A stretch of 58,745 bases of DNA from a virus (taxonomy: Duplodnaviria > Heunggongvirae > Uroviricota > Caudoviricetes), in IMG/VR virus record IMGVR_UViG_2531839662_000025. One strand, 5' to 3'. The notes beneath the pieces are model-generated. The model was given only the letters and a program-made list of their open reading frames with translations. It was not told the origin of the DNA and ran no database searches. Positions within the stretch are counted from its first letter, which is position 1. Each line of letters starts with the position of its first letter. Below are positions 1 through 58,745 of this stretch, in pieces. The position numbers and the translations under genes are program-made.

Positions 1-567
1 TTATTCCACTATAAAATTCCTAACCGAATTCAAATCCCCCAGACTGCTCAGTTCCTCTTTCAATTCACGCTGACGTTGATAAATCTCGTCATTGCGATCG
101 ACCTGAGCCTGCGCCATTGCAGTAAGCAGCTCATCCAGTTTCTGCATCGACAGTTTCACCTGCTGGTTTTCCGCATCGCCCCATACCATGGTTTTTCGCG
201 CTGTGTCAGACTTTGATGCCATTACTGCCGGATAAAGGCGGGCCAGTGAGTCGGGGCCAGCGTTCCAGGTGCGGCCGTTCCATTCGAACGTGAACGGCTG
301 CGCTTCCTGTTCTGTGCGCCATACCTCAATTTCTCGTTTTTTAGCGTCCTTTGCTGCTTCCAGCATTTCAGGCGTAACAGTGAACGGGGCGATTTCGCCC
401 CATTTGCCGCTTTTCAGTTCCTGCCAGATTTGCTGGCCTGTCGTCGCGGTGTCTTCTGGCGTGGCTGTGTACGGAAGCGGGTCTTCCATTCCTTCAAACA
501 GCACGTCGCAGTCAATCGCACCGGACTCGGTGTAGCGGGGACTGGTGATTTTTTTAATTTGCATCAT
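1..567 (-). CDS. tail fibre assembly chaperone (Tfa-like)
   Basis: 188-aa ORF immediately downstream of a tail-fibre gene (4-bp overlap); stop codon is the first 3 bases of the window. Confidence 0.7.
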   Translation of the reverse strand: MMQIKKITSPRYTESGAIDCDVLFEGMEDPLPYTATPEDTATTGQQIWQELKSGKWGEIAPFTVTPEMLEAAKDAKKREIEVWRTEQEAQPFTFEWNGRTWNAGPDSLARLYPAVMASKSDTARKTMVWGDAENQQVKLSMQKLDELLTAMAQAQVDRNDEIYQRQRELKEELSSLGDLNSVRNFIVE

Positions 568-2558
568 GAAACCCTCACAAACAAAGAAACCAGCCCCCGA
601 TTATAAAACGTGACATCCGGGCCTCCTGATAAAGCGAGATATGTGCCAGGCAGGGTACTTCCGTAGACAAATGACCTGGCAGCGGCACTAAATCCTGAAC
701 CGCGATACTCAGCTTCGAAGACCACCTGCCGGAGCCTTGATCCCGGCACAGGTTGCGTACGAAGTAATGTGACATCACTGCTGCCGCTATCTGGCAGGTA
801 TGCGGCAAGAACCAGGCTACCCGGTTGCGGAGCGCGCTGTGATGTAGTATCTCCTGCACATAACAGTTGTATCAGTCGGTCGCGTGACCAGAATAGCCGC
901 GACCATGCCCCGGGAAGTGTCGCCGAAGACATTGATTTTGTAACCAATACCTGATACTTAGCCGGCCCCTCACCAGTAGCGCCGCTGTATTCGGCATCGC
1001 CATGAAAAGTTATCCACCGGCCTGTTTCTGATTCAATACCGCCTGAACCAATTCCGCATCGTATTTCTATATCTACAAGCCCCCTGAAATAGGGTTGCCC
1101 CCCATCATAAGCAATGATGGGATTATATGAAATGCCACTCCCTCCATATTGTGTTACCGCGTAACGCCCGGGGGTGACTTCGAACACCCATTTCAGAAAT
1201 TCGGCAGGGCCATTTTTGGCGCTGAAATACACCACTTCCGACGAAGAGAACACATGCCCGTATCCGAACGCCCCCGGCAGCGCAACACGGCCTTCCGTGC
1301 TGTCGTAAAGGTCTGTCTGAATGTCCTTTACCGCTGCGCTTTTCAGCTCAAGCTCATTGCGCATGGCTTCCACTGTGGCCTGCGCCAGCAGTGACCGGGC
1401 TTTTTCTGACAGCGGAGACAGTGAAGCATTCCCGTCCTGATTAAAGCACAGAAGGTTATCTGCCCGTTCTTCCAGATTGCTGATTGCGGTTAACACGTCG
1501 CTGAGTGGTTGTTTACCCGCCAGCGCATTCATGATTGTTGTCGCAAAGTTCGGGTCATTACCCAGCGCCGCTGCCAGCTCATTCAGCGTGTCCAGGGCTT
1601 CCGGGGACGAGTCAACCAGCGCAGCAAGCAGTTTGCGGACAAACGCCACGTTCGCCATCTCCAGCCCGACGGCATCATCCGGTGGTGTTGGTGTGGTGGG
1701 CGTGCCGGTGAACGCCGGGCTGTCCAGCGGTGCTTTTGTTTTCGTCTCGTCCATGACGGTTTTGACAGCCTTTGGTGTGGCTGCCAGCTCTTCGCTGTCG
1801 TTGTCCGTATCACTACAGAGTTGCACCAGGCCTTTTTCTGTCGTGGAAGCATTGCTTCCCTTCAGGTCATCAACTATCCGTTGCGCCTCGTCCTTATGCT
1901 GTTTCGCGTTCTGCTCGCTTTTTGCTGCCGCTTCGGCGCTGGCTTTTGCCTCGCCGGTCAGCGTTGCAGCTTCACCGAGTTTATCGACCGCTTTCTTGAC
2001 TATCGTGTCGGCATCCTTGACGGCCTGCTCTGCGCGGGCGGCATCCTGTGTGGCAGATGATGCCAGCTGTGCCACCTGCTTTTTATCTTTGGCAACGGCT
2101 TCTGCATTCTGCTGTACGTTATCCGCCAGCGTCTCGCAGTCGCTCTTAATTTGTTGCGCATCAGCGACGTGTTGCCCGGCCTGTTGTTCGCTTTCCGCTG
2201 CCGCTTCCGCGCTCTGCTGCGCCTGCGCCACCATTTCCTCAAAGCGTTTCACCACGTCGGGTTTGAGGTCGCCTTCATCAAGGGCAGTCAGAAAGTCGTT
2301 CAGCGTACCGGGCCTGGAGTCGTCGTATACAGCAATGTCGCCAACACAGTACTCGTCGCGCCAGTCCTGCTTCAGATATACGCAATATTTTCCGGTTTGC
2401 GCCTTAAAACAGTACTCGCCACAGTTTCCTGTCACCACGTCGGCAACTGTGCGCATCACCACTTCTGAGGTGTTTACCCGGGATTTCAGAATTATGTGGC
2501 ATCCGGACATGGGGATGCCTGCGCCATCTATCAGCGCACCTGATATCACTACAGACAT
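564..2558 (-). CDS. side tail fibre protein
   Basis: 664-aa ORF with long Ala/Gln/Glu-rich coiled-coil stretch and C-terminal receptor-binding-like region, followed by a Tfa chaperone. Confidence 0.75.
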   Translation of the reverse strand: MSVVISGALIDGAGIPMSGCHIILKSRVNTSEVVMRTVADVVTGNCGEYCFKAQTGKYCVYLKQDWRDEYCVGDIAVYDDSRPGTLNDFLTALDEGDLKPDVVKRFEEMVAQAQQSAEAAAESEQQAGQHVADAQQIKSDCETLADNVQQNAEAVAKDKKQVAQLASSATQDAARAEQAVKDADTIVKKAVDKLGEAATLTGEAKASAEAAAKSEQNAKQHKDEAQRIVDDLKGSNASTTEKGLVQLCSDTDNDSEELAATPKAVKTVMDETKTKAPLDSPAFTGTPTTPTPPDDAVGLEMANVAFVRKLLAALVDSSPEALDTLNELAAALGNDPNFATTIMNALAGKQPLSDVLTAISNLEERADNLLCFNQDGNASLSPLSEKARSLLAQATVEAMRNELELKSAAVKDIQTDLYDSTEGRVALPGAFGYGHVFSSSEVVYFSAKNGPAEFLKWVFEVTPGRYAVTQYGGSGISYNPIIAYDGGQPYFRGLVDIEIRCGIGSGGIESETGRWITFHGDAEYSGATGEGPAKYQVLVTKSMSSATLPGAWSRLFWSRDRLIQLLCAGDTTSQRAPQPGSLVLAAYLPDSGSSDVTLLRTQPVPGSRLRQVVFEAEYRGSGFSAAARSFVYGSTLPGTYLALSGGPDVTFYNRGLVSLFVRVS

Positions 2559-2581
2559 AGTTTTTCTCGCGATAAATTAAA

Positions 2582-3127
2582 TCAGGAAGAGGCTTCCGGA
2601 GAGACGGGCCATTCAATGGCGTTATATGAGGTTTTATCAGTGATAATGTTGAAATCCATCGCCTGCAGCGATTTCGCGTAAATGCGGTACGCTTTCAGTT
2701 TCTCCCTGTCTTCGTCACTGATTAATCCCAGCAGCAGGTCTTTTTCCCATTCGCTGGTCATGATGCTGGCCTGTTTTAACAGTGCATCACGCTCATCTTC
2801 CGCTTTAAGTTTGTAGTCAAAAACAAATTCATCATTGCGGTAGAACCAGTAACCAGGCGCGGTAATACGGCGATTGGCGGTAATATCCGGAACTTCAATA
2901 ACACAGGCGTTACGGGGTTCAATGCCTGTCACATCCTTACCGACCCACACCACGCGCCCGTCCCCGGAGTAAACCATTTTTATTGTGTCACTGGCAAAGT
3001 TCTTCTGTTCTTCATACCAGTTTTTGCCGTCTTCCGAAAAAAGCCAGGTGACACCATATTGTTTTGTCAGTTGATATTGTTCCGCGGTTTTCGGATTACC
3101 CGCAGTAATATTTTTTAAATGTAACAT
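2582..3127 (-). CDS. tail fibre assembly chaperone (Tfa-like)
   Basis: 181-aa ORF directly after a tail-fibre gene; Tfa-like length and position. Confidence 0.7.
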   Translation of the reverse strand: MLHLKNITAGNPKTAEQYQLTKQYGVTWLFSEDGKNWYEEQKNFASDTIKMVYSGDGRVVWVGKDVTGIEPRNACVIEVPDITANRRITAPGYWFYRNDEFVFDYKLKAEDERDALLKQASIMTSEWEKDLLLGLISDEDREKLKAYRIYAKSLQAMDFNIITDKTSYNAIEWPVSPEASS

Positions 3128-3129
3128 TG

Positions 3130-4314
3130 TTAAACACTCGCCACGTTATACCAGGTGCCATTAATCAGTTTCTGAAGCGGACGGTAATACACGCCGCCGA
3201 TGTTATCTGCCGAATTACTTCCGGTTTCCTGCACATTAATACCGGATAACCCGTGGCCTGAAGGTGAGCGAAATGTCCAGGATACCTGGTTACCTCCCGG
3301 GTTGTAATACATTTCGGAACCATAACGCACATCCTGCACGCCGCCATTTCGCTGCTGATAGCGGGCATCAAAGTTTCCGTAGTTTGATGGAACCATCTGC
3401 CCGTTTACGGCAAACGTTATGCTGTTATCCGTATTCCTCTGACTGTAAAAATGCCAGCCAGAATCATCACCAAGCTCTGCAACAACAGGCCTTGAGGAAT
3501 TTCCCCATAGATTAAATCTTGCACTCTTCGTGGAAGAACTGTCACACGACAGCGTGAACTTTCTTAAATTGCCGGTCGAGAGATTTTCTAATGCCAGCAC
3601 ACCGTTTTTTGTAAAACGAAAGGCGTTGTGTCCCTCTGCAAACACATTAATAACACCGCGTCCGCCCCACTTAAAACCGGTATTGCTATCACAGAGCGTG
3701 AGTGATTTTTCACCCAGATTGTTCTCATTACCGATGCCAATCCTGTCACCAATAACCACATCGCCCTGGCGCAGGTTAATGGAAATGGGCCGCAGTGGGC
3801 CAATATCGCCATTCTCGCCCTGACCTTCACTGGTAGGGATAAGGTGCAGGCACTCTTCCGAGCGACGAAAAATCAGACCAAAGGCTTCGTTGAAAATCCT
3901 CAGCGCATTAACTCCACGGATTTTTAGTTCTCCGGTCATGGTGTCACCATCACGCTGAACGGCATTTTTTGCCTTATCCACCGTAGGTTTTAATCCGAGG
4001 TTTTCAACAGCCTCATCCTTATCTTCCACATCCGAAAGGTTATTTTTTATCAGCAATGCCTCTTCGTTAATCGCACCGCCCACCAGTAATAATATGGCTT
4101 TATATAGCTGATCGTGTTCTTCTTTATTCAGTTCTATCCCGGCTTTCTCAATGACACCACAGATTTCCTCCTGAATGGCATCCCACATGGCACTGTTCAG
4201 CCAGGTGGCAAGGCGTCCTGTGCGAAGATTTCCGTCAGTAAATCCGTTCTTGCCCGGGCCAAACTTATCTTTTACCGCTGTCAGCGTATCAATCCTGTGC
4301 ATCTTCATCCTCAT
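3130..4314 (-). CDS. tail fibre protein
   Basis: 394-aa ORF after the baseplate genes; conserved phage tail-fibre N-terminal region followed by Gly/Asn-rich distal part. Confidence 0.7.
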   Translation of the reverse strand: MRMKMHRIDTLTAVKDKFGPGKNGFTDGNLRTGRLATWLNSAMWDAIQEEICGVIEKAGIELNKEEHDQLYKAILLLVGGAINEEALLIKNNLSDVEDKDEAVENLGLKPTVDKAKNAVQRDGDTMTGELKIRGVNALRIFNEAFGLIFRRSEECLHLIPTSEGQGENGDIGPLRPISINLRQGDVVIGDRIGIGNENNLGEKSLTLCDSNTGFKWGGRGVINVFAEGHNAFRFTKNGVLALENLSTGNLRKFTLSCDSSSTKSARFNLWGNSSRPVVAELGDDSGWHFYSQRNTDNSITFAVNGQMVPSNYGNFDARYQQRNGGVQDVRYGSEMYYNPGGNQVSWTFRSPSGHGLSGINVQETGSNSADNIGGVYYRPLQKLINGTWYNVASV

Positions 4315-4879
4315 CTGGATAGGAAAATAAAACGACAGTATGTGACGGACATAATTTATTAATCACGCACTCCGCAACCGTATCCCCCCACGTCCGGATC
4401 GGTGTGTTGCAGGCGTCCGTGCATGTCTGCCACTGAGCACCGGCATCCACCGGCAACGTCACACGCCAGAAATAACGCCAGCGATCCCCCCATTCCGGAT
4501 CGGGGCTTGCATCCAGATTCTGGAACTGTTCGATCGTCACGCCGGTATATCCCAGCGCCTCAAGCTGATCCAGGAAAAACTGCTCATTTATGCCGCCAGC
4601 TACATTGGCTTTTGCTTCAAGACGTTGCTGGCGCTGGCGTAATGTCTGGGTTCCGACAGGAGAACAGGAATCAGGTAAACCATACAATTTTTCATAACGT
4701 TCAATCAGCTCTGTGGACTGACCGGGATCGATTTCAATCACCAGTTCATCAGCCCGCTGGTGAACACGCACAAGCGATGGAGCCAGACCGTCAAGTACAC
4801 CGTCGGTATCTGACCATGCAGGTCCCGGCGGCATCAGGCCATACAACAATTTTGTATAATCATCCTGTAACGTATCCAT
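4289..4879 (-). CDS. tail protein, Mu gp48/YmfQ-like
   Basis: 196-aa ORF between baseplate J-like gene and tail fibre, the Mu gp48 position. Confidence 0.6.
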   Translation of the reverse strand: MDTLQDDYTKLLYGLMPPGPAWSDTDGVLDGLAPSLVRVHQRADELVIEIDPGQSTELIERYEKLYGLPDSCSPVGTQTLRQRQQRLEAKANVAGGINEQFFLDQLEALGYTGVTIEQFQNLDASPDPEWGDRWRYFWRVTLPVDAGAQWQTCTDACNTPIRTWGDTVAECVINKLCPSHTVVLFSYPDEDEDAQD

Positions 4880-5961
4880 TATTTACTCCTTACCGGGTCA
4901 TAAGCCTGCCATGTGATCTCCCCGAGTACCGGAAGCTCAGTTTCCCCCAGGTCAATATCCGATGAAGGGTCGATGAGTCGATGGGCCACCTCGCCTGCAG
5001 ATAAACTGATAGCCTCGCTGATTCTGGACAGATACATGCGCCCTTCCGGCACACCATCCCGGAACATCAGCGCATTCAGTTCTGATTTTATTGCCGCCCT
5101 GATTTGCGGTGTGTCTTTCGATAACGCAATCGTCATCGGGATAACTTTTTCTGTGGCACCGAATACATACAATCCGCTTCCGGCAACAGGTGCCAGAGGA
5201 AGGATGTGGTCCCTGACTGCGTTAATCACGCTTTCATCCGGGGCCGGGTGTTCAGGATCGTTCGTCGCCACCATCACGCCAACCGTTCCAATACCTTTCC
5301 AGTGTCTGAAAGTCCATGCACGGTTAATACCCTGAACTTCTTTCGCCCAGATAACATAATCAGGATCTGCGCCCCCCTGTGGAATGTAGTAATAACGTTC
5401 CATAACGCGGGCACGCCATATTTCCAGATTTTCAATATCTTCACCGTCTGTAATGGTGTCAGCGTATCCTGTGGACGGCAGACCACTGACGGGTGTTCCC
5501 AGCTGCATGGCAATACCATCATCCGTATTCCCCGCCGATCCCGGTTCGTCTGCCACAACAGGCACCCGGAGAAGACCATCGGCTGCGGTCACCGTCGCCG
5601 TCGTGGTGAAGGTCACCTGATCATCACGCTGGATCTGCGTTCCCGCTGGCAATACCGGCGTCCCCTCTACGCCATCCCAGCGCACAAATCCCCGGGCTGC
5701 CACCGCATCTTTTCGCGGGCAGCGTTTGATTCTGGCGTGCCGGTACAACCAGTCTTCATCACACATGTCCGGCAACAGATTTCTGGCAAGATAATCGATA
5801 TACCCGTACAACGTGTGTACGGCTGCAGCCTGTACACGGGCATACACTTCCGCATCCATACGACGAAGCAGCGTATCCTGCTCAAAGCGGGTTAATAAAT
5901 CGCTCCGGATCATAGAAATAAGTTGCGGAAGGCCGGGGCGATAAAACTGACTGTCAGCCAT
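4879..5961 (-). CDS. baseplate J-like protein (Mu gp47-like)
   Basis: 360-aa ORF; size and position in Mu-like baseplate cluster. Confidence 0.7.
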   Translation of the reverse strand: MADSQFYRPGLPQLISMIRSDLLTRFEQDTLLRRMDAEVYARVQAAAVHTLYGYIDYLARNLLPDMCDEDWLYRHARIKRCPRKDAVAARGFVRWDGVEGTPVLPAGTQIQRDDQVTFTTTATVTAADGLLRVPVVADEPGSAGNTDDGIAMQLGTPVSGLPSTGYADTITDGEDIENLEIWRARVMERYYYIPQGGADPDYVIWAKEVQGINRAWTFRHWKGIGTVGVMVATNDPEHPAPDESVINAVRDHILPLAPVAGSGLYVFGATEKVIPMTIALSKDTPQIRAAIKSELNALMFRDGVPEGRMYLSRISEAISLSAGEVAHRLIDPSSDIDLGETELPVLGEITWQAYDPVRSK

Positions 5962-6367
5962 TCAGTTCACTCCAGATATCATCAAAAATAATGTTGTGAA
6001 TATTGCCGTCACGCTGGTAAATGGTAATGGCAAGTGCCAGCGAGTCTGTCCCGGTCCGGACAGCGTTAATATCAAGACGGGAAGCAACACCATCCTCCAC
6101 CATCCACGCCAGCGCCTCACGGGCATAATCTCTGGCAAGCTGCGGGGTTTTATTTGTCAGCTTGCTGCGTCGCAACAGATACAGACGCGACCCCGTGCGA
6201 TCATTCTGAACCGCAGGCCAGGTATCTCCCCACCATCCAAATATCTGCGGTGCATCATCATCACGCCCTGCACGCCGCCAGGTAAAAAGCGAAATAATCA
6301 CAGCACGCGTCAGAAGGTCGAGCGAAGCCCCGGTCGACACGGTTCGCCCGTTAACATTAATCATCAT
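5954..6367 (-). CDS. baseplate protein (Mu gp46 / GPW-like)
   Basis: 137-aa ORF overlapping baseplate J start; Mu-like order. Confidence 0.6.
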   Translation of the reverse strand: MMINVNGRTVSTGASLDLLTRAVIISLFTWRRAGRDDDAPQIFGWWGDTWPAVQNDRTGSRLYLLRRSKLTNKTPQLARDYAREALAWMVEDGVASRLDINAVRTGTDSLALAITIYQRDGNIHNIIFDDIWSELNG

Positions 6368-6372
6368 GATTT

Positions 6373-6906
6373 TCAGCCCATCGGTTGATCTGGCGTGTCA
6401 GTGATCCCACCACCATCACCATTTTCGGTGTGTTTGTGGGCATTGTAGGTCTGCCGCATTTGCTGCATGCTGAGTCCGCCACTGTCGCAATTGTCAGTAA
6501 TATCAGCGGTGGATTCGACAGGCATTTCAAAGCGCGCTTTAGGCGCGTTTTGAAAAATAATGGGCTTCCCGCCCCCGTTCACCACAATACCGGAACGAGT
6601 CAGGACAACGGATTGCCCCTGATCGTCATAAAGCGCCACTTCCCCACGTTTCAGTCCTTTCAACCGGTAACGTCTGTCAGCCACGACCACAACCACACCA
6701 TGAGAACGATCGCCCGCCGGGAATAAAGCAACGCCCTCAGCACCGTTCTGTGCAGCAGATGTAAAACCATAAGGCTCAAGGTGCTCAACGTGTTGTTTCT
6801 GATCTCCGGCTATCATTTTCAACCCTACAGACTGACACTTTCTGGCTGAATCCACCGCCGTGATGACAGCCCGGGAAATCAGATTGCGAAGAGAAAACCC
6901 GTTCAT
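6373..6906 (-). CDS. baseplate assembly protein V / spike (Mu gp45-like)
   Basis: 177-aa ORF in Mu-like baseplate cluster. Confidence 0.6.
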   Translation of the reverse strand: MNGFSLRNLISRAVITAVDSARKCQSVGLKMIAGDQKQHVEHLEPYGFTSAAQNGAEGVALFPAGDRSHGVVVVVADRRYRLKGLKRGEVALYDDQGQSVVLTRSGIVVNGGGKPIIFQNAPKARFEMPVESTADITDNCDSGGLSMQQMRQTYNAHKHTENGDGGGITDTPDQPMG

Positions 6907-7961
6907 CAGAAATCCTCCTCAACATTTTTTTTCTTCCTGCCGGTAACAGGCTCGGGGAGATAAGCATCTGCCGGGCCAACCCGTAATTCAGTCGTCGTGC
7001 CCCGGTCGTCCTGGTTATAGGTGACTTCTGCGATCACCAGTTCATCATTATCAAAATTATTCAGCGGGTCGAAAACGATGACAGATAACCCCGGACGCCA
7101 TAACGCGCCACTGCCCTGCCGCCAGCCCTGAACCGTATATGTTGTCTCACGGGTAAGCGCAGCCCGTTGACGCGCTTCAAATTCACAACGGGCCTTACAG
7201 GTTGCTGTCGTTGCTGTGCCTGACTGCTGAATCAACAAAGGGCGATAACGGGTCACACCACTGTCCTGAATGGTCTGACGTATTGCGGCAATGGTGGCCT
7301 CACCAAAATCATCATCGTTGCCCGGGCGCTGCCCACTGACCTGATATTCAGAAAACCGCTCTCTGATGCTTCTTTCCGTATCACAGGAAAGAATATTCTC
7401 TCCCAGCACCAGTGCTGTCGCCGCTTTGCCTGTTCCGGTTTTCCCCAGAACCAGTCGACCGCATTCATCGTCATAAGCCAGCGTCTGAACCTGCCCCAGC
7501 AACCGGTTAAGACAATCGGCAACGGTTTCGCCGTGTTCCGGCTGGGCATCAATCACCGCTGTCTGCGGCACACCGGCGTCAACAACGGTGATGCCAAATG
7601 GCGCAGCCAGTTCACTGACGATTCTGAGCAGGTTTTTTCCGCTCTGCTGGACTGGCAAAGCAGAGCAGTCAACCAGATCGGCTGTTTTGCTTCGCCCGAC
7701 AATTCCCATGCTGACGCTGCTGGCGTCATAACGAAGCGGTAGAGCCTCCACATATCCGGTGAGCACGGGCTCATCCCCGATAAGCACTTCAACCAGCTCA
7801 CCATTTTTTATCCGGGGCTGATAATCCCGGCTTCCGGGCCAGCGGGTGGTAATGGCAACATTAAAATCCCGGGCAATACGGTTAATGCCCGCACTGATTC
7901 GGACGGATGTCCAGCCGCCCCATTCGCGACCAGAAACCCGAAGTAAAACGGTATTATTCAT
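6906..7961 (-). CDS. tail protein, Mu P-like (gp44-like)
   Basis: 351-aa ORF between N-like gene and baseplate genes. Confidence 0.6.
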   Translation of the reverse strand: MNNTVLLRVSGREWGGWTSVRISAGINRIARDFNVAITTRWPGSRDYQPRIKNGELVEVLIGDEPVLTGYVEALPLRYDASSVSMGIVGRSKTADLVDCSALPVQQSGKNLLRIVSELAAPFGITVVDAGVPQTAVIDAQPEHGETVADCLNRLLGQVQTLAYDDECGRLVLGKTGTGKAATALVLGENILSCDTERSIRERFSEYQVSGQRPGNDDDFGEATIAAIRQTIQDSGVTRYRPLLIQQSGTATTATCKARCEFEARQRAALTRETTYTVQGWRQGSGALWRPGLSVIVFDPLNNFDNDELVIAEVTYNQDDRGTTTELRVGPADAYLPEPVTGRKKKNVEEDF

Positions 7962-9349
7962 CTGACGGGTACCCTTAATGCCCTGATCGGAACAAAGCCC
8001 GGATGGGAGATGGCATTTCGATCCAGGATATCAGTTTCACGGGACGCATCGTCGTACCATGACGCAGCCAGAACAAGCGCAGGAAGAACCTCCGCTGGCG
8101 TTCGCTCTGCGGTCTCCTCCGTCTGAACCAGACGGGCCTGAATATCCCGGTTCAGTTCTGTACGTAATGACGTCAGCTGAAAAAACAGCCTGTCATCCGC
8201 CGCACGCCTGAGCTCCTGTTCAATCGCCGCGTTCAGCGATTCGCGTATGATGGTGAGATTTTCCCGCGTGGGTGGTTGCGCGGTCTCATCCTGCTCTGTG
8301 CTGGCTGCCACGCTGTCAAGCGCCGGATGAGAAACATGAATGATATCGGACTGACGTTCAGTGGAACCACCAACAGCCACAACCGCCTGCTGATTTTTCA
8401 CCAGACTTCCGGGTTGCGGCAGTGAAGTGACCGCCCTTGCAGCCTCGCTGATTGCCGTCGTCCGGATGACTGCAGCCACCAGATTTGTCTGCTGTTTTTG
8501 CCTGACAACCGATGCGGAATCTGTGGGCCACACAGCACGCGGTGCCAGTCCTGGATCCAGCGTAATACCTGACATTGTCGTTATGGACTGCACCAGATCC
8601 TGTGTGTTACCCACCAGTCTGGTTCCTGCCCGCCAGGTATCCTGCAACGTATGCACAAAATCACTGGCAACCGACGGCGGCATCAGAATGACGGATAAAT
8701 CGCCCTGCAGTAGTCTCGCTCCGGCAGAAACAGCCGAATTAACCATTTTGAAAGCTGTCTGAACGGTTCCCAGCATATCGGTTGCCCGGGCAATAACATC
8801 GTTCTGAATAAAGTCCGATATTCCCGCGAGATCAAAATCGCCGAACATGTCTTCAATCAGCTCATCCAGGAATCCGGACGACTCCTCCAGTTTTCTGGCG
8901 GTTGCGGCTCCGGCGACCGGGAATGACAGTTCCCCGCTCTCAACAAACTGAAATGAAACCCGGCACATACGGCCTTCCGTGCTGGAATGAGAAACGGTCA
9001 CCTGTCCGTCAATACAACCCTGCATTTCACCGAACTGCGGATGGATCAGTGTCCCCGGCCCGGCGGTTTCAATCGCGGTAATCAGCCTGTCGCGCTGCTC
9101 TGCGTAATCATCACCAACGAGATACGCATTAATCGTCAGCCGTCGCGTGGCACGCCCGAGATCTTCCGTGTACGGTTTGTCACGGTTTGGGTATTCATGG
9201 ACCTGAACGCGGCGTCCGAACGAACCCTCGTCGCTTTCCACCGAAAACGGAACGCCACGAAATGAAGCATCGTAAAGATTATCGCGCCAATTGATACCTG
9301 AAGATGCAGAAAGGAGTGAAGAAAGAGAAGGTAAAGAAGGTAAGTCCAT
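7958..9349 (-). CDS. tail protein, Mu N-like DNA circularization protein (gp43-like)
   Basis: 463-aa ORF following tape measure in Mu-like order. Confidence 0.6.
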   Translation of the reverse strand: MDLPSLPSLSSLLSASSGINWRDNLYDASFRGVPFSVESDEGSFGRRVQVHEYPNRDKPYTEDLGRATRRLTINAYLVGDDYAEQRDRLITAIETAGPGTLIHPQFGEMQGCIDGQVTVSHSSTEGRMCRVSFQFVESGELSFPVAGAATARKLEESSGFLDELIEDMFGDFDLAGISDFIQNDVIARATDMLGTVQTAFKMVNSAVSAGARLLQGDLSVILMPPSVASDFVHTLQDTWRAGTRLVGNTQDLVQSITTMSGITLDPGLAPRAVWPTDSASVVRQKQQTNLVAAVIRTTAISEAARAVTSLPQPGSLVKNQQAVVAVGGSTERQSDIIHVSHPALDSVAASTEQDETAQPPTRENLTIIRESLNAAIEQELRRAADDRLFFQLTSLRTELNRDIQARLVQTEETAERTPAEVLPALVLAASWYDDASRETDILDRNAISHPGFVPIRALRVPVR

Positions 9350-9362
9350 ACTGTCTCCACTA

Positions 9363-9390
9363 TAAAAAAACCGCCAATTTCTGGCGGCTT
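9363..9390 (-). terminator. rho-independent terminator after lipoprotein moron
   Basis: Minus-strand hairpin (CCGCCA/TGGCGG stem) followed by U-run, directly downstream of the 9396-9878 gene. Confidence 0.55.
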
Positions 9391-9395
9391 ATATA

Positions 9396-9878
9396 TTAAT
9401 CATCACTAATATCTTTCATATTCAATTTGCAATTTTCGTAGGTCACTCCAGACTCGCCATTAACATTAACTCCAGCTCTGATATTCCCGTTTTCTTTTAC
9501 ATCTACAAAAAACTGGCCTCTTGGCATCTTGAACACAAATGTAAAACCAACGGTATCTGAATCAAAATCATCATCTTTATATATTGGGATCAGATGTGTC
9601 ATCGTCGCTGGTGATGCATTGTTTGCAAAATCAAATACACCTATACTTTTGCCGAATTCATAAGAAGCTTTTCTCAATATAATCGCACCGCTGGCAGAAG
9701 GGGATGGGCACGATATCCTCAGTTGTCTGAATCCATCTGTATCCAAGTCAACATCATTATATGCAGATGCTTTAACGTTATTAACAAATCGTGAAGCAAT
9801 CTCCGCATTTGTTAGTGTTTTCGCCTGAGCACAGCAAGAGGTTAATATTGCAACTGTCATTAAAAATGGCTTTATCAC
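9396..9878 (-). CDS. predicted secreted lipoprotein (moron in tail module)
   Basis: 160-aa ORF with N-terminal signal peptide and lipobox (LTSC); AT-rich relative to flanking tail genes; own terminator. Confidence 0.6.
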   Translation of the reverse strand: MIKPFLMTVAILTSCCAQAKTLTNAEIASRFVNNVKASAYNDVDLDTDGFRQLRISCPSPSASGAIILRKASYEFGKSIGVFDFANNASPATMTHLIPIYKDDDFDSDTVGFTFVFKMPRGQFFVDVKENGNIRAGVNVNGESGVTYENCKLNMKDISDD

Positions 9879-14319: not shown

Positions 14320-14328
14320 GAGGGACTC

Positions 14329-49043: not shown

Positions 49044-49062
49044 ATCCTCACTTTACAACGGG

Positions 49063-49411
49063 TTATATGCGGATGCCAGCGCGTTCCGTTCGTTTCGGGT
49101 GCTTCCAGTCGATGCCTTCGAGAAGCATGGACAACTGAGCCGGAGTAAGGTGAACCTTTCCATCGCGGGTGACCGGCCAGACGAAGCGGCCCCGCGTCCA
49201 GGCGTTTGGTGAAGAGGCACAGTCCGTCACTGTCAGCCCACAGCACTTTTATCTGGTCACCCCGGCGTCCGCGGAAGATGAACAGATGCCCGGAGAACGG
49301 GTCATCCTTCAGGACGTTCTGAACTTTTGAGGCCAGGCCGTTAAAGCCATTTCGCATATCGGTGATACCGGCAACCAGCCAGATACGCGAACCGGCAGGG
49401 AGAGATATCAT
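49063..49411 (-). pseudogene. tnpB: IS66-family TnpB, apparent +1 frameshift in a G-run
   Basis: Track ORF 48902-49411 leaves the expected frame after KRL; the shifted frame gives RFVWPVTRDGKVHLTPAQLSMLLEGIDWKHPKRTERAGIRI and stops just before tnpC. Confidence 0.5.
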
Positions 49412-50061
49412 CAGTGGCTGCTCCCTTTCATTTCGCGGATAAGTGTCTGTAATAACGCCGGTGTCAGTTCACCTTTCAGCCTGAGAGTTCCGGCCGGCAG
49501 AACCAGCTCGCAGCACAGACTGTCTGGCAGTGTATTTATCTGTTCAGGTATCTGCACTGGTGCCGGGATTTTATTATCCGGCTCCGGAGTTAACGTCACG
49601 GGAAGTAGCGATGTTTCATGTTCGCCGGGCGGTTGCAGGCCACCGTTACGCCAGAGATGCCGCCAGTTAAAGAGCAGGTTATCGTTAATTCCATTCTCTC
49701 GAGCTATTTGTGCGACACAGGCACCGGGTAAAAGAGTTTGCTGAACCAGTCTCCATTTAAACTCCGGTGAAAATCGGTTCCGGCGGGGTTTCTCTGCTTT
49801 CACAGGCTGAGTCACGGTCGGGGCTGAAGGGTATCGCCCCGGGAAAAGAGCCCGGGCCAGTTGCCCGCAGGAATATTCACCGGAAAGAGGCCAGTCAGTG
49901 AATACCTGGTGAAATCGCCTCACCAGAGAAAAAATGGTGGTTTTGCTGACACCGGTCTGCGCAGAAATGCGCGGGTACGACAGTGACTCGTCAAATCTCA
50001 GCTGTAGCACACGCAGGATCAATTCCGGATTGTCTGCCAGTACCGCTTTTCGTGCATTCAT
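49411..50061 (-). CDS. tnpA: IS66-family accessory protein TnpA (orf1)
   Basis: 216-aa HTH ORF at the start of the IS operon. Confidence 0.7.
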   Translation of the reverse strand: MNARKAVLADNPELILRVLQLRFDESLSYPRISAQTGVSKTTIFSLVRRFHQVFTDWPLSGEYSCGQLARALFPGRYPSAPTVTQPVKAEKPRRNRFSPEFKWRLVQQTLLPGACVAQIARENGINDNLLFNWRHLWRNGGLQPPGEHETSLLPVTLTPEPDNKIPAPVQIPEQINTLPDSLCCELVLPAGTLRLKGELTPALLQTLIREMKGSSH

Positions 50062-50146
50062 CTTAAATGTCCCTTTACTGCGAAAATGGACATTAGTATC
50101 GGAAACAGGAAAGGGAGGCGAAAGACGGTTTAAATGAGACGGTTAC

Positions 50147-50154
50147 GGTTGTGC
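50147..50154. repeat. 8-bp target site duplication GGTTGTGC (right)
   Basis: Direct repeat of 47434-47441. Confidence 0.75.
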
Positions 50155-50442
50155 TCCGGCTTTACCCTGTTTTTGTGCTGGTTTGCGGATAACCCTTGCT
50201 TTTCTTGCCGAACTTGCCAGCCATTCACGGTAAACTCCCTCTGAAAGGAATACCCCTTTTCCGCTGACAACATACACTTCGCCCTGGCTCACCAGCATCT
50301 TCAGGTACCGGCGAATGGAATCATGTGAAGCATATGTTGTCGATGCCAGTTGTGGCATTGTCATACGCCCGTTTTTACGTACAAGGTCAACGATGTGACG
50401 CTGTAATCTTTCCCGCTGTTCTTCGGTATAAATAGCCCCCAT
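50147..50442 (-). pseudogene. winged-helix phage protein disrupted by the IS66 insertion
   Basis: Track ORF 50143-50442 takes its stop codon from the IS terminus; the same frame continues on the other side of the IS at 47441-47328 for 34 more codons. Confidence 0.65.
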
Positions 50443-50484: not shown

Positions 50485-51432
50485 TTACCCCCTGAACCCC
50501 GGCGGAATTTCGGTGTCCGGTTCAGAAATGTGATTCACGCAACGCTGTACAGGCGAACGCCCCAGACGAATAACCAGCTCATCCCATTTTTCGCGAAGCT
50601 TTGACGGGCTCATGACGTTTTTTACCCAGAATGGATCCCGCTGTACCCGACCAAACATTTCGCAAATTTGTCTGTGAGTTCTGCCATCCAGCATCCGCAT
50701 TGTGCGCACATCATTGGCCCATGCAGTCCAGTTGGGTTCTTTCGGTCGCATGATTTCGCCATCATCGCTGGCAGCCTGCTCGTAAAGACTCACGATTCGT
50801 CCCCAGATCCACTGCGCACACGCTAAATCTTCCTGGCTGCCCCACTGGCGTTTTTTCGCACTGAACACAACCGCGTCAGGGTGTCGGGTTAAAAAATCCT
50901 GTTCAGCCGTCTGCGAGTCCGGTTGCGAAGCTTCCGGACGAAAAGATCTTTTATCTGACGGATCAGGTTTTAATACTGACGGATCGGGGCCAACCATCGC
51001 CCCCCTAACCGGATGTTTTTTATCAACGGTTGATCCATCAAAATTTGAGGGGTCAATCGTTGAGGGGTCAATATTTGACGGGTCATTTTTTACCGGGTTA
51101 ATTTTTCTTTTCGGTTTATATGCCTCACGCGCCGCCGCTGCTGCTGCTTCGAGTTTTTCCACATTAAGACGGTAGATATTGCTTTCATTACGCCCACCGA
51201 CCTTACGTTCTTCCTTCGTCAGCCAGCCGTTCTTTTCCAGTTCTGCTATCGCAGCTTTAACCGTTGATTCACTCTTTGCCCCAATCTGACGACGAATGGT
51301 CTCCACTGCAGGCCATGACACACCTTCGTCATTGCTGTAATCTGCAAGGCGAGCCATTACTGCCACCCTGGATAAGATCATGCCGGTGAAGGCACACCCT
51401 TCCCAGACAAGACCATGAAGCTTGCTGCTCAT
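50485..51432 (-). CDS. replication initiation protein, lambda O-like
   Basis: 315-aa ORF: N-terminal HTH, internal peptide repeats (DPSNIDPSTIDPSNFDGSTVD) encoded by DNA iterons. Confidence 0.7.
   Translation of the reverse strand: MSSKLHGLVWEGCAFTGMILSRVAVMARLADYSNDEGVSWPAVETIRRQIGAKSESTVKAAIAELEKNGWLTKEERKVGGRNESNIYRLNVEKLEAAAAAAREAYKPKRKINPVKNDPSNIDPSTIDPSNFDGSTVDKKHPVRGAMVGPDPSVLKPDPSDKRSFRPEASQPDSQTAEQDFLTRHPDAVVFSAKKRQWGSQEDLACAQWIWGRIVSLYEQAASDDGEIMRPKEPNWTAWANDVRTMRMLDGRTHRQICEMFGRVQRDPFWVKNVMSPSKLREKWDELVIRLGRSPVQRCVNHISEPDTEIPPGFRG
50954..51106. repeat. origin iterons inside the O-like gene
   Basis: Tandem TTGAGGGGTCAAT / TTGACGGGTCATT / TGACGGATC repeats followed by an AT-rich stretch. 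Confidence 0.6.
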
Positions 51433-51455: not shown

Positions 51456-51881
51456 TTAGTGCATCACCACGGCATTTCCCGCCGGACCACCACGATTCAT
51501 CTGATTGAAACCAGCGATCGCCACTGCGACAAAATCATCAGCGTCTCTCACCAGTCGTTCCCGCATCTCCACCAGCTCCCGAAAATAGGCTGAACTGTGG
51601 CTGCGCATTCGGGCCACCAGCAGAGGTGGCATTGCCTTTTCGATCGCCGGTAACAGCGCCTGAATTTTTTTAACCGCATCAGGGGTGTCTTTCTCCACCC
51701 AGCGGAAAATTTTCTGAGTATTGCGAGCCAGGGCTTCCGGATGCCTGTCGTCATATAGCTCCGGGAACGTCATACCAAGCTCAAAATAAGCCTGGGTTAT
51801 TTCAGCTGCCGGAACTTTTTCACCGTCCGGATGCGCCCAGGCATTCATCGCCATGCGGATGTGTTCATGCTTGATTTTCAT
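51456..51881 (-). CDS. YdaT-like protein (CII-like regulator)
   Basis: 141-aa ORF closely resembling Rac YdaT as I recall it. Confidence 0.6.
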   Translation of the reverse strand: MKIKHEHIRMAMNAWAHPDGEKVPAAEITQAYFELGMTFPELYDDRHPEALARNTQKIFRWVEKDTPDAVKKIQALLPAIEKAMPPLLVARMRSHSSAYFRELVEMRERLVRDADDFVAVAIAGFNQMNRGGPAGNAVVMH

Positions 51882-52093
51882 TAATCATTCTTTCCTTCGT
51901 TCGAGGTGCTATCCTGCTTCTTGTAAAGTTCTGGGTTGTATTTCAATTCACCGTTAGTAATTTCATCCAGTTCCATTGCGCGAAGTTTGGGAATAACTGC
52001 TTTCCACCGCACAACAGCCACATGTGAAATTCCAAGAGCCTCAGCTACTAGTCGCTTTTTTTTGAAATAGCGCAGAACATCATCTTTGAACAT
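51881..52093 (-). CDS. Cro-like HTH regulator (YdaS-like)
   Basis: 70-aa HTH ORF divergent from the cI-like gene. Confidence 0.65.
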   Translation of the reverse strand: MFKDDVLRYFKKKRLVAEALGISHVAVVRWKAVIPKLRAMELDEITNGELKYNPELYKKQDSTSNEGKND

Positions 52094-52121: not shown

Positions 52122-52184
52122 GGTAACAATAGTTACATAGCAATGTCAACCATAGCAACATCACTTGGTAGTAACATTGGTTAC
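52122..52184. promoter_or_regulatory. operator sites in the cI/cro-like divergent promoter region
   Basis: GGTAACAATAGTTAC (52122-52136) and GTAACATTGGTTAC (52171-52184); palindromic half-sites GTAAC/GTTAC. Confidence 0.55.
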
Positions 52185-52859
52185 ATGAAAAACACTATCA
52201 GCGAACGTATTCGGAATCGTCGAAAAGACGTTGGATTAACCCAACAGCAGGTTGCGAAAGCAATCGGCATATCTCGTGTATCCGTAACAAAATGGGAAAA
52301 TGGCTCTTCAAAACCTGACGGTGAGAATTTGCATCTACTGTCAAAATTGCTTTCCAAATCTCCTGAATGGATTCTTTATGGAAAGGACTGTCACGATAAA
52401 ACCGATGATCTGCGTCTGAATCAGTACCCTTACATTAGTGACAACATCGCCCGGTTGCCCGTTTTAACGTGGGAACAGGCTGGTTATTGGGATATGAGTT
52501 GTCCAGTAACCGAGATTCCTGGTATTAAGAATTGGGTTGATGTCATGACAAAAACCGCTGAAAACTCTTTTTTATTGCATGTTGAGGGAGATGCGATGAC
52601 AAACTCTAACGGCCTCCCAACCATCCCCGACGGATCTACCGTGCTGATCACACCATGCTCAAGTAACATTAGAGAACTGGTGGGAAAAATAATCTTAATC
52701 CAATTGGAAGGAACGCCAAACGTAACACTAAAAAAAGTTGCGATTGACGGACCAAACATCTATCTGTTGTCACTGAATCCGCTTTACAAACCCATCGAAC
52801 TGAATGGTGGTTACACCATTAAAGGTAAAGTTTCACAAATACATCAATACTTAGACTGA
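52185..52859 (+). CDS. CI-like repressor (HTH plus S24 LexA-like peptidase domain)
   Basis: Track ORF 52086-52859; likely start MKNTISER at 52185 (alternative 52143). Confidence 0.75.
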   Translation: MKNTISERIRNRRKDVGLTQQQVAKAIGISRVSVTKWENGSSKPDGENLHLLSKLLSKSPEWILYGKDCHDKTDDLRLNQYPYISDNIARLPVLTWEQAGYWDMSCPVTEIPGIKNWVDVMTKTAENSFLLHVEGDAMTNSNGLPTIPDGSTVLITPCSSNIRELVGKIILIQLEGTPNVTLKKVAIDGPNIYLLSLNPLYKPIELNGGYTIKGKVSQIHQYLD

Positions 52860-54958: not shown

Positions 54959-57439
54959 ATGAGTAAAGTCTTTATTTGCGCCGCCATTCCGGACGAACAG
55001 GCAATAAAGGAAGAAGGTGCAGTCGCTGTAGCCACTGCCATTGAAGCCGGCGACGAACGCCGCGCCCGTGCCAAATTTACCTGGCAATTCCTGGAGCAAT
55101 ATCCGGCTGCTCAGGACTGCGCTTATAAATTTCTTGTCTGCGAGGATAAACCCGGCATGCCCCGCCCTGCCATCGACTCCTGGGATACCGAATATATGCT
55201 GGAAAACCGCTGGGATGAGGAAGGCGCTTCCTTTGTTCCGGTCGAACCAGAATCCGATCCGATGAACGTCAATTTTGACAAGCTGTCCCTTGAAGTACAG
55301 AACGCGGTCCTGGTTAAGTTCGGTACATGTGAAAACATCACCGTTGATATGGTGATTAGTGCACAGGAATTGTTGCAGGAGGACATGGCAACATTCGACG
55401 GGCATATCGTTGAGGCACTGATGAAAATGCCTGAAGTTAACGTCATGTATTCAGAACTAAAGCTGTTCGCCATCGGGTGGGTTAAACATAAATGTAAGCC
55501 GGGCGCAAAATGGCCTGAGATCCAGACAGAATTACGCACCTGGAAAAAACGTCGCGAAGCCGAACGCAAAGAAACCGGGAAATACACGTCTGTTGTTGAT
55601 CTTGCCCGCGCCAGAGTCAACCGGCAGCACACTGAAAACTCAGCAGGAAAAATCAACCCCGCCACTGCCGCCATTCGTCGCGAATACAAGCAGACATGGA
55701 AAACGCTGGATGAAGAACTGGCCTACGCTCTGTGGCCTGGCGATATTAATGCCGGAAACATTGACGGCAGCATCCATCGCTGGGCAAAAAATGAAGTTAT
55801 CGACAAAGATCGCGAAGACTGGAAGCGCATTTCCGCATCAATGCGCAAACAACCCGATGCCGTTCGCTACGACCGTCAGACTATTTTTGGCCTTGTCCGT
55901 GAGCGTCCGATCGACATTCACAAAGATCCCGTGGCACTGAACAAATACATCACTGAATACCTGGTGACAAAGGGCGTGTTTGAGGATGAAGAAACAGACC
56001 AGAACACTACTGATATTCTCCAGCCGTCAGCAGCACAAACTGATGCAGTGGAAACTGAAGTATCTGATACCCAAAAAAATGAAAGCACGCTGGAAACTGA
56101 ACCATCTGTAGAGCGTGAGGGGCCGTTCTACTTCCTTTTCACCGATAAGGATGGCGAAAAATATGGTCGTGCAAACAAACTTTCTGGTCTGAATAAGGCG
56201 CTGGCTGCAGGGGCTACTGAAATCACGAAAGAAGAATATTTTGCCCGCAAAAACGGCACATACTCAGGTTCACAACAAAATACTGGTGCATCTGACACGA
56301 CCGCACAACCGGAGCCGGTAAAAGTTACCGCTGACGAAGTAAACAAAATTATGCAGGCAGCCAATATCAGCCAGCCTGACGCCAATCAGTTGCTTGCTGT
56401 ATCACGTGGTGAATTTGTTGCAGGGATTAGCGACCCGAATGATCCGAAATGGGTGAAGGGGATTGAAACCCGCGATTCAGTGAATCAGAACCAGCAAGAA
56501 ACGGAACAGAACGACCAGAAAGCGGAACAAAACAGCCCAAATGCGTTACAAAACGAGCCAGAAACGAAACAACCTGAGCCAGTAGCGCAACAGGAAGCGG
56601 AAAAAGTCTGCACCGCCTGCGGTCAGACCGGCGGCGGCAACTGCCCTGATTGTGGTGCGGTGATGGGCGACGCAACATACCAGGAAACATTCGATGAAGA
56701 GAATCAGGTTGAAGTTCAGGAAAATGATCCGGAGGAAATGGAAGGCGCTGAACATCCACACAAGGAGAATGCTGGCAGCGCTCAGGACCACGCCAGCGAT
56801 AATGAAACTGGCGAGACGGCAGATCCCTTAATTGCGGTGAACGGTCATCACGTTATCACATCCACCAGCAGAGTGTGGTACCACCTGATGATCGACCTTG
56901 AAACAATGGGAACCAACACCAATGCGCCCATCGTGGTTATTGGTGCGGTTTTCTTCGACCCACAAACAGGGGAAATCGGGCCAGTATTTTATATCGTTAT
57001 CAGTCTGACTGACGCAATGAATACAGGGGCTGTTCCTGACGGTGGAACCATCGAATGGTGGCTGAAGCAGTCCAGTGAAGCCAGAGCTGCCATTTTAACA
57101 GACCAGGTAAAACTGAAGGATGCCCTTTCGCGGTTTCGGGAGTTCATCAACGAATACTCAGATGAAAAATTCGTTCAGGTATGGGGTAATGGTGCAACTT
57201 TCGATAACGCAATTTTGCGCACCTCATACGAACGTCTGGACATCCCCTGCCCGTGGCGCTACTACAACGATCGCGATGTACGCACAATCGTTGAGCTGGG
57301 AAAAACAATCGACTTTGATGCCAGAACAGTTATTCCATTTGAAGGCGTGCGCCACAATGCGCTGGATGATGCCCGTCACCAGGCAAAATACGTTACAGCC
57401 ACGATACAAAAACTGATCCCGAATCCGGTTGATTTTTAA
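54959..57439 (+). CDS. large early-left protein with C-terminal DEDD-type 3'-5' exonuclease domain
   Basis: 826-aa ORF; C-terminal ~200 aa carry exonuclease-like [18 protein letters not shown] and HNALDDARH motifs; internal [16 protein letters not shown] zinc ribbon. Confidence 0.55.
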
Positions 57440-57505
57440 TGTTCACCCCTGATCGCCGTCTCCGAATTATATTGGCGGCGGTCATGCTGTAAGGCACGTG
57501 ACCAC

Positions 57506-57757
57506 ATGTACGAATTAACTCTATCGCCAGCAGAGATTCAAGAGATCACGAAATACGAGCGATACACAAAACAGCAACACCAGTTAAGGCTGCACGGTAT
57601 CCCATTTGTAATCGGTCCTAAAAACGAACCAATAGTTCTTCGCAGGGATATTCCACACGGACTGACTACGATGCCAAAAGCACCTGAACTGGTTTCCGCT
57701 GAACCCGATTTTGAGGCGCTGAACAATGGGAAGACCAAGAAAAAACAAAAAAGATAA
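57506..57757 (+). CDS. putative excisionase (Xis-like)
   Basis: 83-aa ORF immediately upstream of and overlapping the integrase. Confidence 0.4.
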   Translation: MYELTLSPAEIQEITKYERYTKQQHQLRLHGIPFVIGPKNEPIVLRRDIPHGLTTMPKAPELVSAEPDFEALNNGKTKKKQKR

Positions 57758-58745
57758 TGCACTACCACCGCGTGTTAGATCGAATGGTTACAGTTACGTA
57801 TGGAAACCCGAAGGAAGCACAAGAACTATAGGGCTCGGAAGAGTGCGGGAAACCAGCGTAGCTAAAGTCTGGCAAAATTATGAGCTGGAAAAAGCAAAAC
57901 TCCACAACATAATGACAGTAGCTAAATTATGGCACATGTTTATGGACTCCCCTGCATTTACAGAACTGGCCCCCCGAACCCAAAAAGATTATCGGCAACA
58001 TCAAAGGGCATTGTTGGCAGTATTCGGAAAAGTGCTTGCTGATAATGTAAAAATTGAACAGGTAAGAATTTTCATGGATAAGCGAGGACTTGAGAGCAAG
58101 ACCCAGGCAAACCATGAACTGGCAAGTCTGAGCCGTGTATACGGATGGGGATATGAGCGTGGGTATGTGAAAAATAATCCATGCAAAGGAGTCAGAAAAT
58201 TCACACTTAAAGCCCGTACTGTTTACATCACCGATGAACAGTATGCTGCAATATATGCGGAAGCAATTCCACAGTTACGTATTGCAATGGAGATATCCTA
58301 TCTTTGTGCGGCAAGGCTCGGTGATGTACTCGAGCTGAAATGGCAGGATATTATGGATAAAGGGATTTACATTGAGCAAAACAAGACCGGCACTAAACAA
58401 ATCAAGGAATGGTCTCCGCGATTACGTACGGCGATCCAGTTAGCCCGAAATGTATCTTCCGGCACATGCGAGTATGTGATCAACACAACCAAAGGCGGGA
58501 AGGTAATAGCCAAGACGCTGAACAACTGGTGGAATCAGGCTAAACGTGCGGCCGAGCAAAAAGCCGGCGTTCCGTTTGGGTGCAACTTCCATGACATAAA
58601 AGCCAAAGGGATTTCAGATTACGAAGGCAGCAGTCGCGACAAACAAATTTTCAGTGGACACAAAACAGAAAATCAGGTGTTGATTTACGATCGTAAAACC
58701 AAAATCACCCCAACACTGGATTTGCCGCTTGTGGTCAGTAAGTAG
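57726..58745 (+). CDS. tyrosine integrase (lambda-type) of the host prophage
   Basis: 339-aa ORF ending at the window edge; phage-integrase N-terminal SAM-like and C-terminal catalytic regions. Confidence 0.8.
   Translation: MGRPRKNKKDNALPPRVRSNGYSYVWKPEGSTRTIGLGRVRETSVAKVWQNYELEKAKLHNIMTVAKLWHMFMDSPAFTELAPRTQKDYRQHQRALLAVFGKVLADNVKIEQVRIFMDKRGLESKTQANHELASLSRVYGWGYERGYVKNNPCKGVRKFTLKARTVYITDEQYAAIYAEAIPQLRIAMEISYLCAARLGDVLELKWQDIMDKGIYIEQNKTGTKQIKEWSPRLRTAIQLARNVSSGTCEYVINTTKGGKVIAKTLNNWWNQAKRAAEQKAGVPFGCNFHDIKAKGISDYEGSSRDKQIFSGHKTENQVLIYDRKTKITPTLDLPLVVSK

Follow-up and report, generated by a model that had tools for sequence, protein, structure and literature searches.

A putative capsid-forming satellite nested in the terL gene of an Escherichia coli prophage that also carries an ordinary insertion sequence and a probable library-linker artefact

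Some mobile elements disrupt genes reversibly. The Listeria comK prophage, the Bacillus subtilis skin element in sigK and SPbeta in spsM are examples of this behaviour, known as active lysogeny or phage regulatory switches. Another group of elements, the phage-inducible chromosomal islands of the capsid-forming kind (cf-PICIs), encode in Proteobacteria a module in the order capsid-protease-portal-connector-hnh-terS-terL; they take only tails from their helper, and helper head or packaging mutants still mobilise them (bioRxiv 10.1101/2022.09.08.507074). Here we analyse a stretch of 58,745 nucleotides (IMG/VR virus record IMGVR_UViG_2531839662_000025, hereafter the window). Open reading frame (ORF) listing, Pfam scans and BLAST indicate that it is a single E. 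coli prophage, from its last tail-fibre gene (1-567) through its integrase gene (57726-58745). Three of its genes are interrupted: terL by a cf-PICI-type satellite, the prohead protease gene by an insertion holding a lox-like site, and a DUF977/Ren-like gene by the insertion sequence (IS) IS679. A sequence-only reading of the same DNA had taken them for three independent lesions in essential or early genes of a defective, or deliberately crippled, prophage. All three interruptions are in the window, but the view that they are three biological lesions in essential genes was not confirmed: with a probability of about 80%, we interpret them as differing in nature, one being a restorable satellite in terL, one a linker artefact and one an ordinary IS in a Ren-like accessory gene. 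The observation was partly confirmed and its interpretation partly supported.

Judged by its genes, the element inserted in terL is a satellite of the capsid-forming PICI type (table 1). As in cf-PICIs, whose prototype is EcCIEDL933 (bioRxiv 10.1101/2022.09.08.507074), a terminal integrase is followed by AlpA-type regulators and a primase in an element of about 15 kb. With 14,974 bp between cores and a terminal integrase it falls within the size range of about 10-15 kb, two Phage_AlpA ORFs adjoin int, and the primase is of the DUF927 type. It has its own capsid-to-terL module, which Pfam matches place in the proteobacterial order given above. Tail or lysis genes were seen neither in the annotation of its copies in the complete genomes UMNF18 and ETEC1749 nor among the scanned ORFs, of which a few small ones have no family. 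Unlike in cf-PICIs, the attachment site lies inside a prophage terL and not at a chromosomal locus, and a literature search for such an insertion, of a cf-PICI or any other satellite, into a prophage terL returned no paper that describes one. The host prophage has a contractile tail of the Mu/phiP27 type, whereas the characterised cf-PICI helper HK106 is a siphovirus.

The head and packaging proteins of the satellite are only about 30% identical to their prophage counterparts. We considered a cos site common to the satellite and the host phage and rejected it: the cores are similar and GC-rich, yet different. This difference fits independent packaging. The intergenic region between the satellite HNH and TerS genes (22875-22885) is nearer to the phiP27 cos region (33/41 positions) than to that of the host. 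The satellite also encodes a 157-aa ORF of low GC (0.43), on the strand opposite to all its other genes (27105-27578, +). It has no match in Pfam, PHROG or PADLOC. Both the UMNF18 and the ETEC1749 copy of the element conserve this ORF, which may serve the satellite as an accessory gene. In a patch of the primase gene (28900-30100) about 75 positions differ from the same-locus copy of UMNF18; the patch shares 99.6% identity with a second DUF927 gene of UMNF18 (2,540,345-2,541,545) and 99.5% with the satellite that ETEC4085 has nested in terL. The RefSeq assembly of UMNF18 may be the mis-phased one at this patch.

That terL is split by the satellite, as first read from the sequence, stands: its two parts are 14,974 bp apart (20302-35275), between two 7-bp TTGGTAA cores. 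The ORF of the N-terminal fragment departs from the restored TerL at residue 344. The corresponding empty site is found in the sibling prophage 2 of UMNF18, whose terL is uninterrupted, and joining the fragments in silico at the core gives a TerL of 585 aa, identical to this intact allele at 583 of 585 positions. Since the exchange is conservative, excision at the core would rebuild an intact terL. Of 5,426 complete E. coli genomes, 36 carry the int|terL junction; these 36 come from pigs, cattle, poultry and humans and include recent complete assemblies. In about 900 others the terL half of the junction is present, but this end of the satellite is not. In the complete genome of ETEC1749 (NZ_CP122712.1, 2137282-2186052), the same satellite occupies the same terL site of a host prophage whose annotation gives both the protease and the DUF977 gene as intact. 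Because the split recurs at one precise site and excision would restore the gene, we regard it as a property of the satellite lifestyle and not as phage decay. The comparison of sequences thus argues that the interruption of terL, previously counted as a lesion, is a recurrent site-specific integration that is potentially reversible. The satellite resembles the regulatory-switch elements in that it splits an ORF at a short core and its precise in-silico excision restores the gene. It differs from them in that the interrupted gene belongs to a prophage, possibly its own helper, and not to the bacterium, and in that excision here is in silico only.

The tail of the ETEC1749 host prophage is non-contractile and lambda-like (gpJ, gpL, tape measure, gp17), and the satellite connector WP_001288063.1 is identical in both prophage contexts, that of the window and that of ETEC1749. 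Since the same satellite is found under contractile and lambda-like tails, it tracks the terL allele and not the tail type. The prophage of the window is possibly the helper of the satellite, which also resides in a siphovirus-tailed prophage.

We propose that the satellite integrated with its own P4-type tyrosine integrase at the 7-bp core, in the region of terL coding for the nuclease domain. On induction, this integrase would excise the element and restore terL. With the exception of the 157-aa ORF, all satellite genes are co-oriented with the late operon of the phage, and we found no terminator-like sites at either satellite/terL junction, so that late transcription could enter the satellite and continue. 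Late transcripts would then run through the N-terminal fragment of terL into int and alpA, and on to the portal and tail genes. A more speculative extension, which we regard as possible but rather doubtful, is that a cf-PICI lineage uses the terL of HNH/P27-type phages as a dedicated attachment site, packaging being blocked until excision and late read-through being a possible trigger of excision or induction.

The second interruption is of another kind. Relative to UMNF18, the S78 protease gene contains 103 extra bases (17942-18044), which separate a 41-codon N-terminal ORF from a remainder of 179 codons. Deleting them gives a 216-aa protease identical to WP_001193625.1 of UMNF18. The gene is indeed broken by the insertion in the scaffold, as had been reported, but the insertion holds a library linker. 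Positions 18002-18044 read TCGTACTAACTTCGTATAATGTATGCTATACGAAGTTATTACG, which comprises in order all 42 bases of the 454 Titanium paired-end/Cre-lox mate-pair linker, printed elsewhere as an adapter to trim (PMC5199103, PMC7038657), plus one extra C in the left arm. The match extends beyond the lox site into the four-base flanks of the linker, TCGT to the left and TACG to the right. In contrast to the usual linker, this copy has the extra C and joins two overlapping copies of the same 58 nt. P1 loxP has 13-bp inverted arms (ATAACTTCGTATA) around an 8-bp spacer (ATGTATGC). The right arm and the spacer are exact in the window, and the left arm is broken by the inserted C (ACTAACTTCGTATA). This is the sole lox-like site of the window and has no second lox partner. 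We saw no cre gene, the satellite and prophage integrases being the only tyrosine recombinases found in the window, and no P1-like sequence around the site. We also rejected a natural P1-related lox site, because linker sequence surrounds it and it occurs in this context in none of the complete E. coli genomes.

The relatives agree with this picture. No complete E. coli genome covers at least 80% of a 141-bp query containing the lox site. Among ten places with an identical portal protein, nine encode the 216-aa protease and the tenth is the source scaffold itself, AFAB02000119.1 (GCA_000194535.2), a draft whole-genome shotgun scaffold from which a 7,242-bp stretch, with the lox site in it, recurs letter for letter in the window. 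The late region around the insertion is a mosaic of variants from both UMNF18 sibling prophages, hence assembly of the repeats was evidently difficult at the protease site. We conclude that the "lox insertion" is very probably an assembly artefact, in which an untrimmed Cre-lox mate-pair linker and a low-quality repeated read segment would have entered the consensus, and that the real genome most likely has an intact protease. The sequence-only reading had itself named sequencing or assembly error as what would refute it, and for the lox insertion this is what we found.

As to the third interruption, the earlier placement of an IS66 element in an early gene beside the replication gene O was correct. 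IS679 lies in the DUF977 gene directly downstream of the O-like gene, with an 8-bp target duplication (GGTTGTGC) on both sides and the ends GTAAGCGGCTCG and GTAACCGTCTCA. RefSeq annotation and Pfam give the features of the IS66 family (tnpA, tnpB, DDE_Tnp_IS66, 8-bp duplication). It is like other IS679/IS66 insertions in lambdoid prophages, with three ORFs, the duplication and GTAAGCG-type ends, and has nothing unusual. Removing IS679 in silico gives a 133-aa ORF, of which the IS cuts off the last 34 residues; what is now encoded retains 98 native residues, the winged-helix region among them. In relatives lacking the IS, the corresponding region holds a DUF977 gene of 134-141 aa, and in three of the four seen this gene immediately follows the O-like one. 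The protein matches PHROG 142, a family of the moron/auxiliary category named "Ren-like exclusion protein", and lambda ren, which occupies the position of the DUF977 gene here, is dispensable in lambda. Both points make an essential role unlikely. We thus regard IS679 as a real insertion in a probably dispensable accessory gene, with small coding damage, and not as a lesion of an essential gene: 34 C-terminal residues are lost from a Ren-like gene of no known essential role. Among complete genomes the junction of IS679 is found in UMNF18 only, so this is a recent event confined to one lineage. If IS679 has an important effect, it would mainly be through polarity on the nin-like region downstream and on the Q-like gene. 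With the artefact discounted and the satellite taken as excisable, the IS is the sole irreversible change seen.

Some observations weigh against our interpretation of the three interruptions. We infer satellite excision from sequence alone: the exact 28-mer predicted for the attP of the excised satellite has zero matches in viral and metagenome contigs, and a 19-mer of it matches 52 loci there, none similar to the window, i.e. chance matches. That the linker is absent from the real chromosome was deduced from assembled sequences. A 58-nt duplication beside the linker is unexpected in a consensus, as a mate-pair junction normally joins sites that are kilobases apart. We found no paper in the literature that names the accession and could give the sequencing platform of AFAB02, although its 2011-era accession presumably indicates 454 sequencing. 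The late-region mosaic implies that parts of the scaffold may be mis-phased. Finally, the downstream effect of IS679 could be severe.

An entirely different explanation of the interruptions is that the prophage is truly defective or engineered, its three lesions being true and genetic manipulation of the protease gene having left the lox site behind as a Cre-lox scar. With the inserted C counted as a substitution, the site agrees with P1 loxP at 33/34 positions, the insertion is absent from all natural relatives examined, and we reason that a lox-flanked vector which integrated by Campbell recombination and was then excised by Cre could in principle leave a duplication beside a single lox. However, the TCGT and TACG that flank the 34-bp lox site match the commercial linker exactly, no vector or primer-site sequence is present, and the duplicated arm and the linker together hold three single-base insertions of the low-quality pyrosequencing kind. 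The record is moreover a draft scaffold of a field-type strain nearly identical to UMNF18, and the two integrases are the only tyrosine recombinases found in the window, with no cre gene seen. We hold this explanation to be very unlikely. With the insertion identified as a library linker with its non-lox flanks, the basis for a deliberately crippled prophage is removed. If the assembly erred at the protease, one may ask whether the satellite in terL is itself a misassembly of repeated phage head genes. The source is after all a draft scaffold with a proven artefact, and the primase patch matches the UMNF18 paralogue elsewhere better than the same-locus copy. Yet the same patch agrees with the terL-nested satellite of ETEC4085, the cores are clean 7-bp repeats with a matching empty site, and the identical junction is present in the 36 complete genomes, recent assemblies included. 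This junction and ETEC1749 effectively refute the idea already, and we give it almost no credit.

Assembly is more of an issue for the prophage ends. In the scaffold, the tail end of the prophage adjoins yecD/aspS (within AFAB02000119.1, 382229-400223), which in UMNF18 is the locus of prophage 2, while the integrase end adjoins yccA/tusE (within 436624-455104), the locus of prophage 1. The two UMNF18 prophages are in inverted orientation, about 1.1 Mb apart. Recombination between inverted siblings would produce a hybrid with ends from different attachment sites, which its integrase could not excise and whose only remaining role would be to donate tails and lysis in situ, e.g. to the satellite. 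The flanks from two different loci and the inverted geometry, which an inversion needs, are as expected under this scenario. So is the absence of any common repeat of at least 11 bp between the tail-side and integrase-side flanks of the scaffold, when prophage 1 of UMNF18 is flanked by a 65-bp tRNA-Ser repeat, and so is a switch of variants from prophage-2 to prophage-1 type near 10.7-11.4 kb. Nevertheless, the variants switch several times and not once: relative to UMNF18, positions 1381-20308 alternate between runs of prophage-1 and prophage-2 type, for example with 92 sites of prophage-2 type at 6954-10744 and 48 of prophage-1 type at 18256-20305. This may reflect either gene conversion between siblings or mixed repeat assembly in either assembly, and collapsed or mixed repeat reads fit as well as gene conversion. 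The late repeat is near-identical over about 20 kb, which 2011-era draft scaffolding easily misjoins, the linker artefact was demonstrated in the same scaffold and the same repeat, and the complete UMNF18 assembly has the non-inverted arrangement. The ends were thus joined either by inversion in the strain or by a misjoin across the repeat. The several switches and the linker artefact make us lean to misassembly, and a locked hybrid appears to us unlikely, though less so than an engineered prophage. If the strain is like UMNF18, a sibling prophage with intact terL and protease could supply the missing functions in trans.

The prophage as a whole is a hybrid with a lambdoid early half and a phiP27-like late half. 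The closest complete genome, that of the porcine enterotoxigenic E. coli (ETEC) UMNF18, is 99.4-99.6% identical to the window, with patchy differences. Given these differences and the exact match to AFAB02000119.1, we rejected UMNF18 itself as the source of the window. The early half is of Rac/lambdoid type (cI-like S24 repressor, cro, YdaT, O-like, RusA, Q-like DUF1133, exonuclease, excisionase-like and integrase genes). In the late half, tblastn aligns all phiP27 late proteins from portal to tail fibres at full length without stops, except the interrupted protease; most are 94-100% identical, and the fibre and fibre-assembly proteins 61-89%. The tail module aligns with phiP27 L42-L57 in full and stop-free, mostly at 97-100% identity (tblastn, with Pfam on the same genes), and the capsid is 99.3% and the adaptor 100% identical. 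The window thus resembles phiP27, a functional Stx2e phage (NC_003356), in its portal-to-baseplate proteins, which are 94-100% identical, and in the identical left half of cos. It differs in its TerS/TerL allele (36-41% identity), its Rac/lambdoid early region, the absence of stx genes and its diverged tail fibres. Identity between the host prophage and phiP27 ends midway through the cos site annotated in phiP27, at precisely the point where the TerS/TerL allele becomes a different one, which puts a mosaic junction at cos (host 36863-36873).

These comparisons bear on what the prophage could still do. The claim that tail, capsid, portal and lysis genes are intact holds, the protease excepted, and the immunity region does contain a cI-like repressor, cro, an excisionase-like gene and an integrase. 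That a defective prophage might still supply tails and lysis to the satellite is plausible in part. Since published helper head and packaging mutants mobilise cf-PICIs, a helper without working terL could still donate both, but the picture of a triply crippled phage fails.

Some further features deserve mention. Two phage-borne tRNA genes, Gly-TCC and Thr-TGT (40271-40424, -), lie between the DNA methyltransferase and TerB-like genes, upstream of the lysis cassette, at the position where phiP27 has tRNA-Ile, tRNA-Arg and stx2e. A 160-aa ORF between the tape measure and DNA-circularisation genes (9396-9878, -; PHROG 5586, function unknown) is found in the window and in UMNF18 prophage 2, and is absent from UMNF18 prophage 1 and phiP27. 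RefSeq calls frameshifts or internal stops in UMNF18 for the baseplate protein, tail terminator, satellite TerS, HNH, DUF927, DNA methyltransferase and O-like genes. These are intact ORFs in the window, and the pseudogene calls are probably homopolymer sequencing errors. PADLOC gave no defence genes for the unassigned satellite and prophage ORFs.

Table 1. Positions of the main features of the prophage, the nested satellite and the other two interruptions in the window.
Feature	Position	Strand	Remarks
Contractile-tail module (DUF4376 protein, tail fibres, baseplate, DNA-circularisation protein, tape measure, tube, sheath, tail terminator)	1-15452	-	all full length
Head closure protein, gp6-like head-tail connector (15792-16136), HK97-type major capsid protein (16162-17385)	15379-17385	-	all intact
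Prohead protease gene (Peptidase_S78)	17399-18152	-	interrupted by 103-bp insertion
Error-bearing 60-nt copy of native 58 nt (18045-18102)	17942-18001	+	two single-base insertions
454 Titanium/Cre-lox mate-pair library linker (TCGTATAACTTCGTATAATGTATGCTATACGAAGTTATTACG) plus one inserted C	18002-18044	+	holds near-loxP site
Portal protein	18130-19371	-	intact
Prophage terL, C-terminal fragment (nuclease domain)	19565-20294	-	Pfam TerL_nuclease positions 64-283; in-silico reconstruction
Core TTGGTAA, terL C-terminal fragment/satellite junction	20295-20301	.	compared with empty site in UMNF18 prophage 2
cf-PICI-type satellite, 14,974 bp	20302-35275	-	Pfam, PHROGs, RefSeq annotation of UMNF18 and ETEC1749
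Satellite TerL (TerL_ATPase, TerL_nuclease)	20817-22478	-	
Satellite TerS (Terminase_4)	22462-22817	-	
Satellite HNH	23107-23547	-	
Satellite gp6-like connector (Phage_connect_1)	23547-23846	-	
Satellite portal (Phage_portal)	23839-25053	-	
Satellite protease (Peptidase_S78)	about 25055-25615	-	
Satellite capsid (Phage_capsid)	25665-26810	-	
Satellite PerC-like protein	27896-28204	-	
Satellite SSB	28208-28633	-	
Satellite DUF927 primase-type protein	28844-30964	-	706 aa
Satellite BRO-N protein	32704-33282	-	
Two AlpA-type regulators (Phage_AlpA ORFs)	33340-33915	-	
Satellite integrase, P4-type tyrosine	33881-35104	-	domains Phage_integrase and Arm-DNA-bind_3
Core TTGGTAA, satellite integrase end/terL N-terminal fragment junction	35276-35282	.	
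Prophage terL, N-terminal fragment (ATPase domain and start of nuclease domain)	35283-36303	-	ORF continues into satellite, stop at 35110
Prophage TerS (36303-36785), cos region (about 36863-36873), HNH endonuclease (36932-37282)	36303-37357	-	
Lysis cassette (M15 endolysin, two holins)	37926-39029	-	intact; 93-98% identical to phiP27 L28-L30, full length
Q-like gene	42308-42862		
Orphaned 3' end of DUF977/Ren-like gene	47328-47441	-	34 codons and stop; left target-duplication copy 47434-47441
IS679 (IS66 family), 2,705 bp	47442-50146	-	tnpA, tnpB, DDE transposase; ends GTAAGCG.../GTAACCG...
5' part of DUF977/Ren-like gene	50147-50442	-	98 native codons; right duplication copy 50147-50154
O-like replication gene	50485-51432	-	
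YdaT	51456-51881	-	
cro-like gene	51881-52093	-	
cI-like S24 repressor	about 52143-52859	+	
Exonuclease	54959-57439	+	
DUF4224 excisionase-like gene	57506-57757	+	
Prophage integrase	57726-58745	+	final gene of the window

Our results indicate that Cre-lox library linkers can survive in public draft assemblies. Such a linker can be read as an engineered loxP scar, leading a sequence-only reader to call a gene broken. The insertion of IS679 is routine, and the terL-targeting satellite is the part worth following up. If a lineage of these satellites does use terL as its dedicated site, it would be tied to its tail donor, gain a head start in packaging and hold a reversible switch on the terL of its helper. 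If the satellite excises on induction, this would amount to a parasite holding a reversible switch on the packaging enzyme of its host phage.

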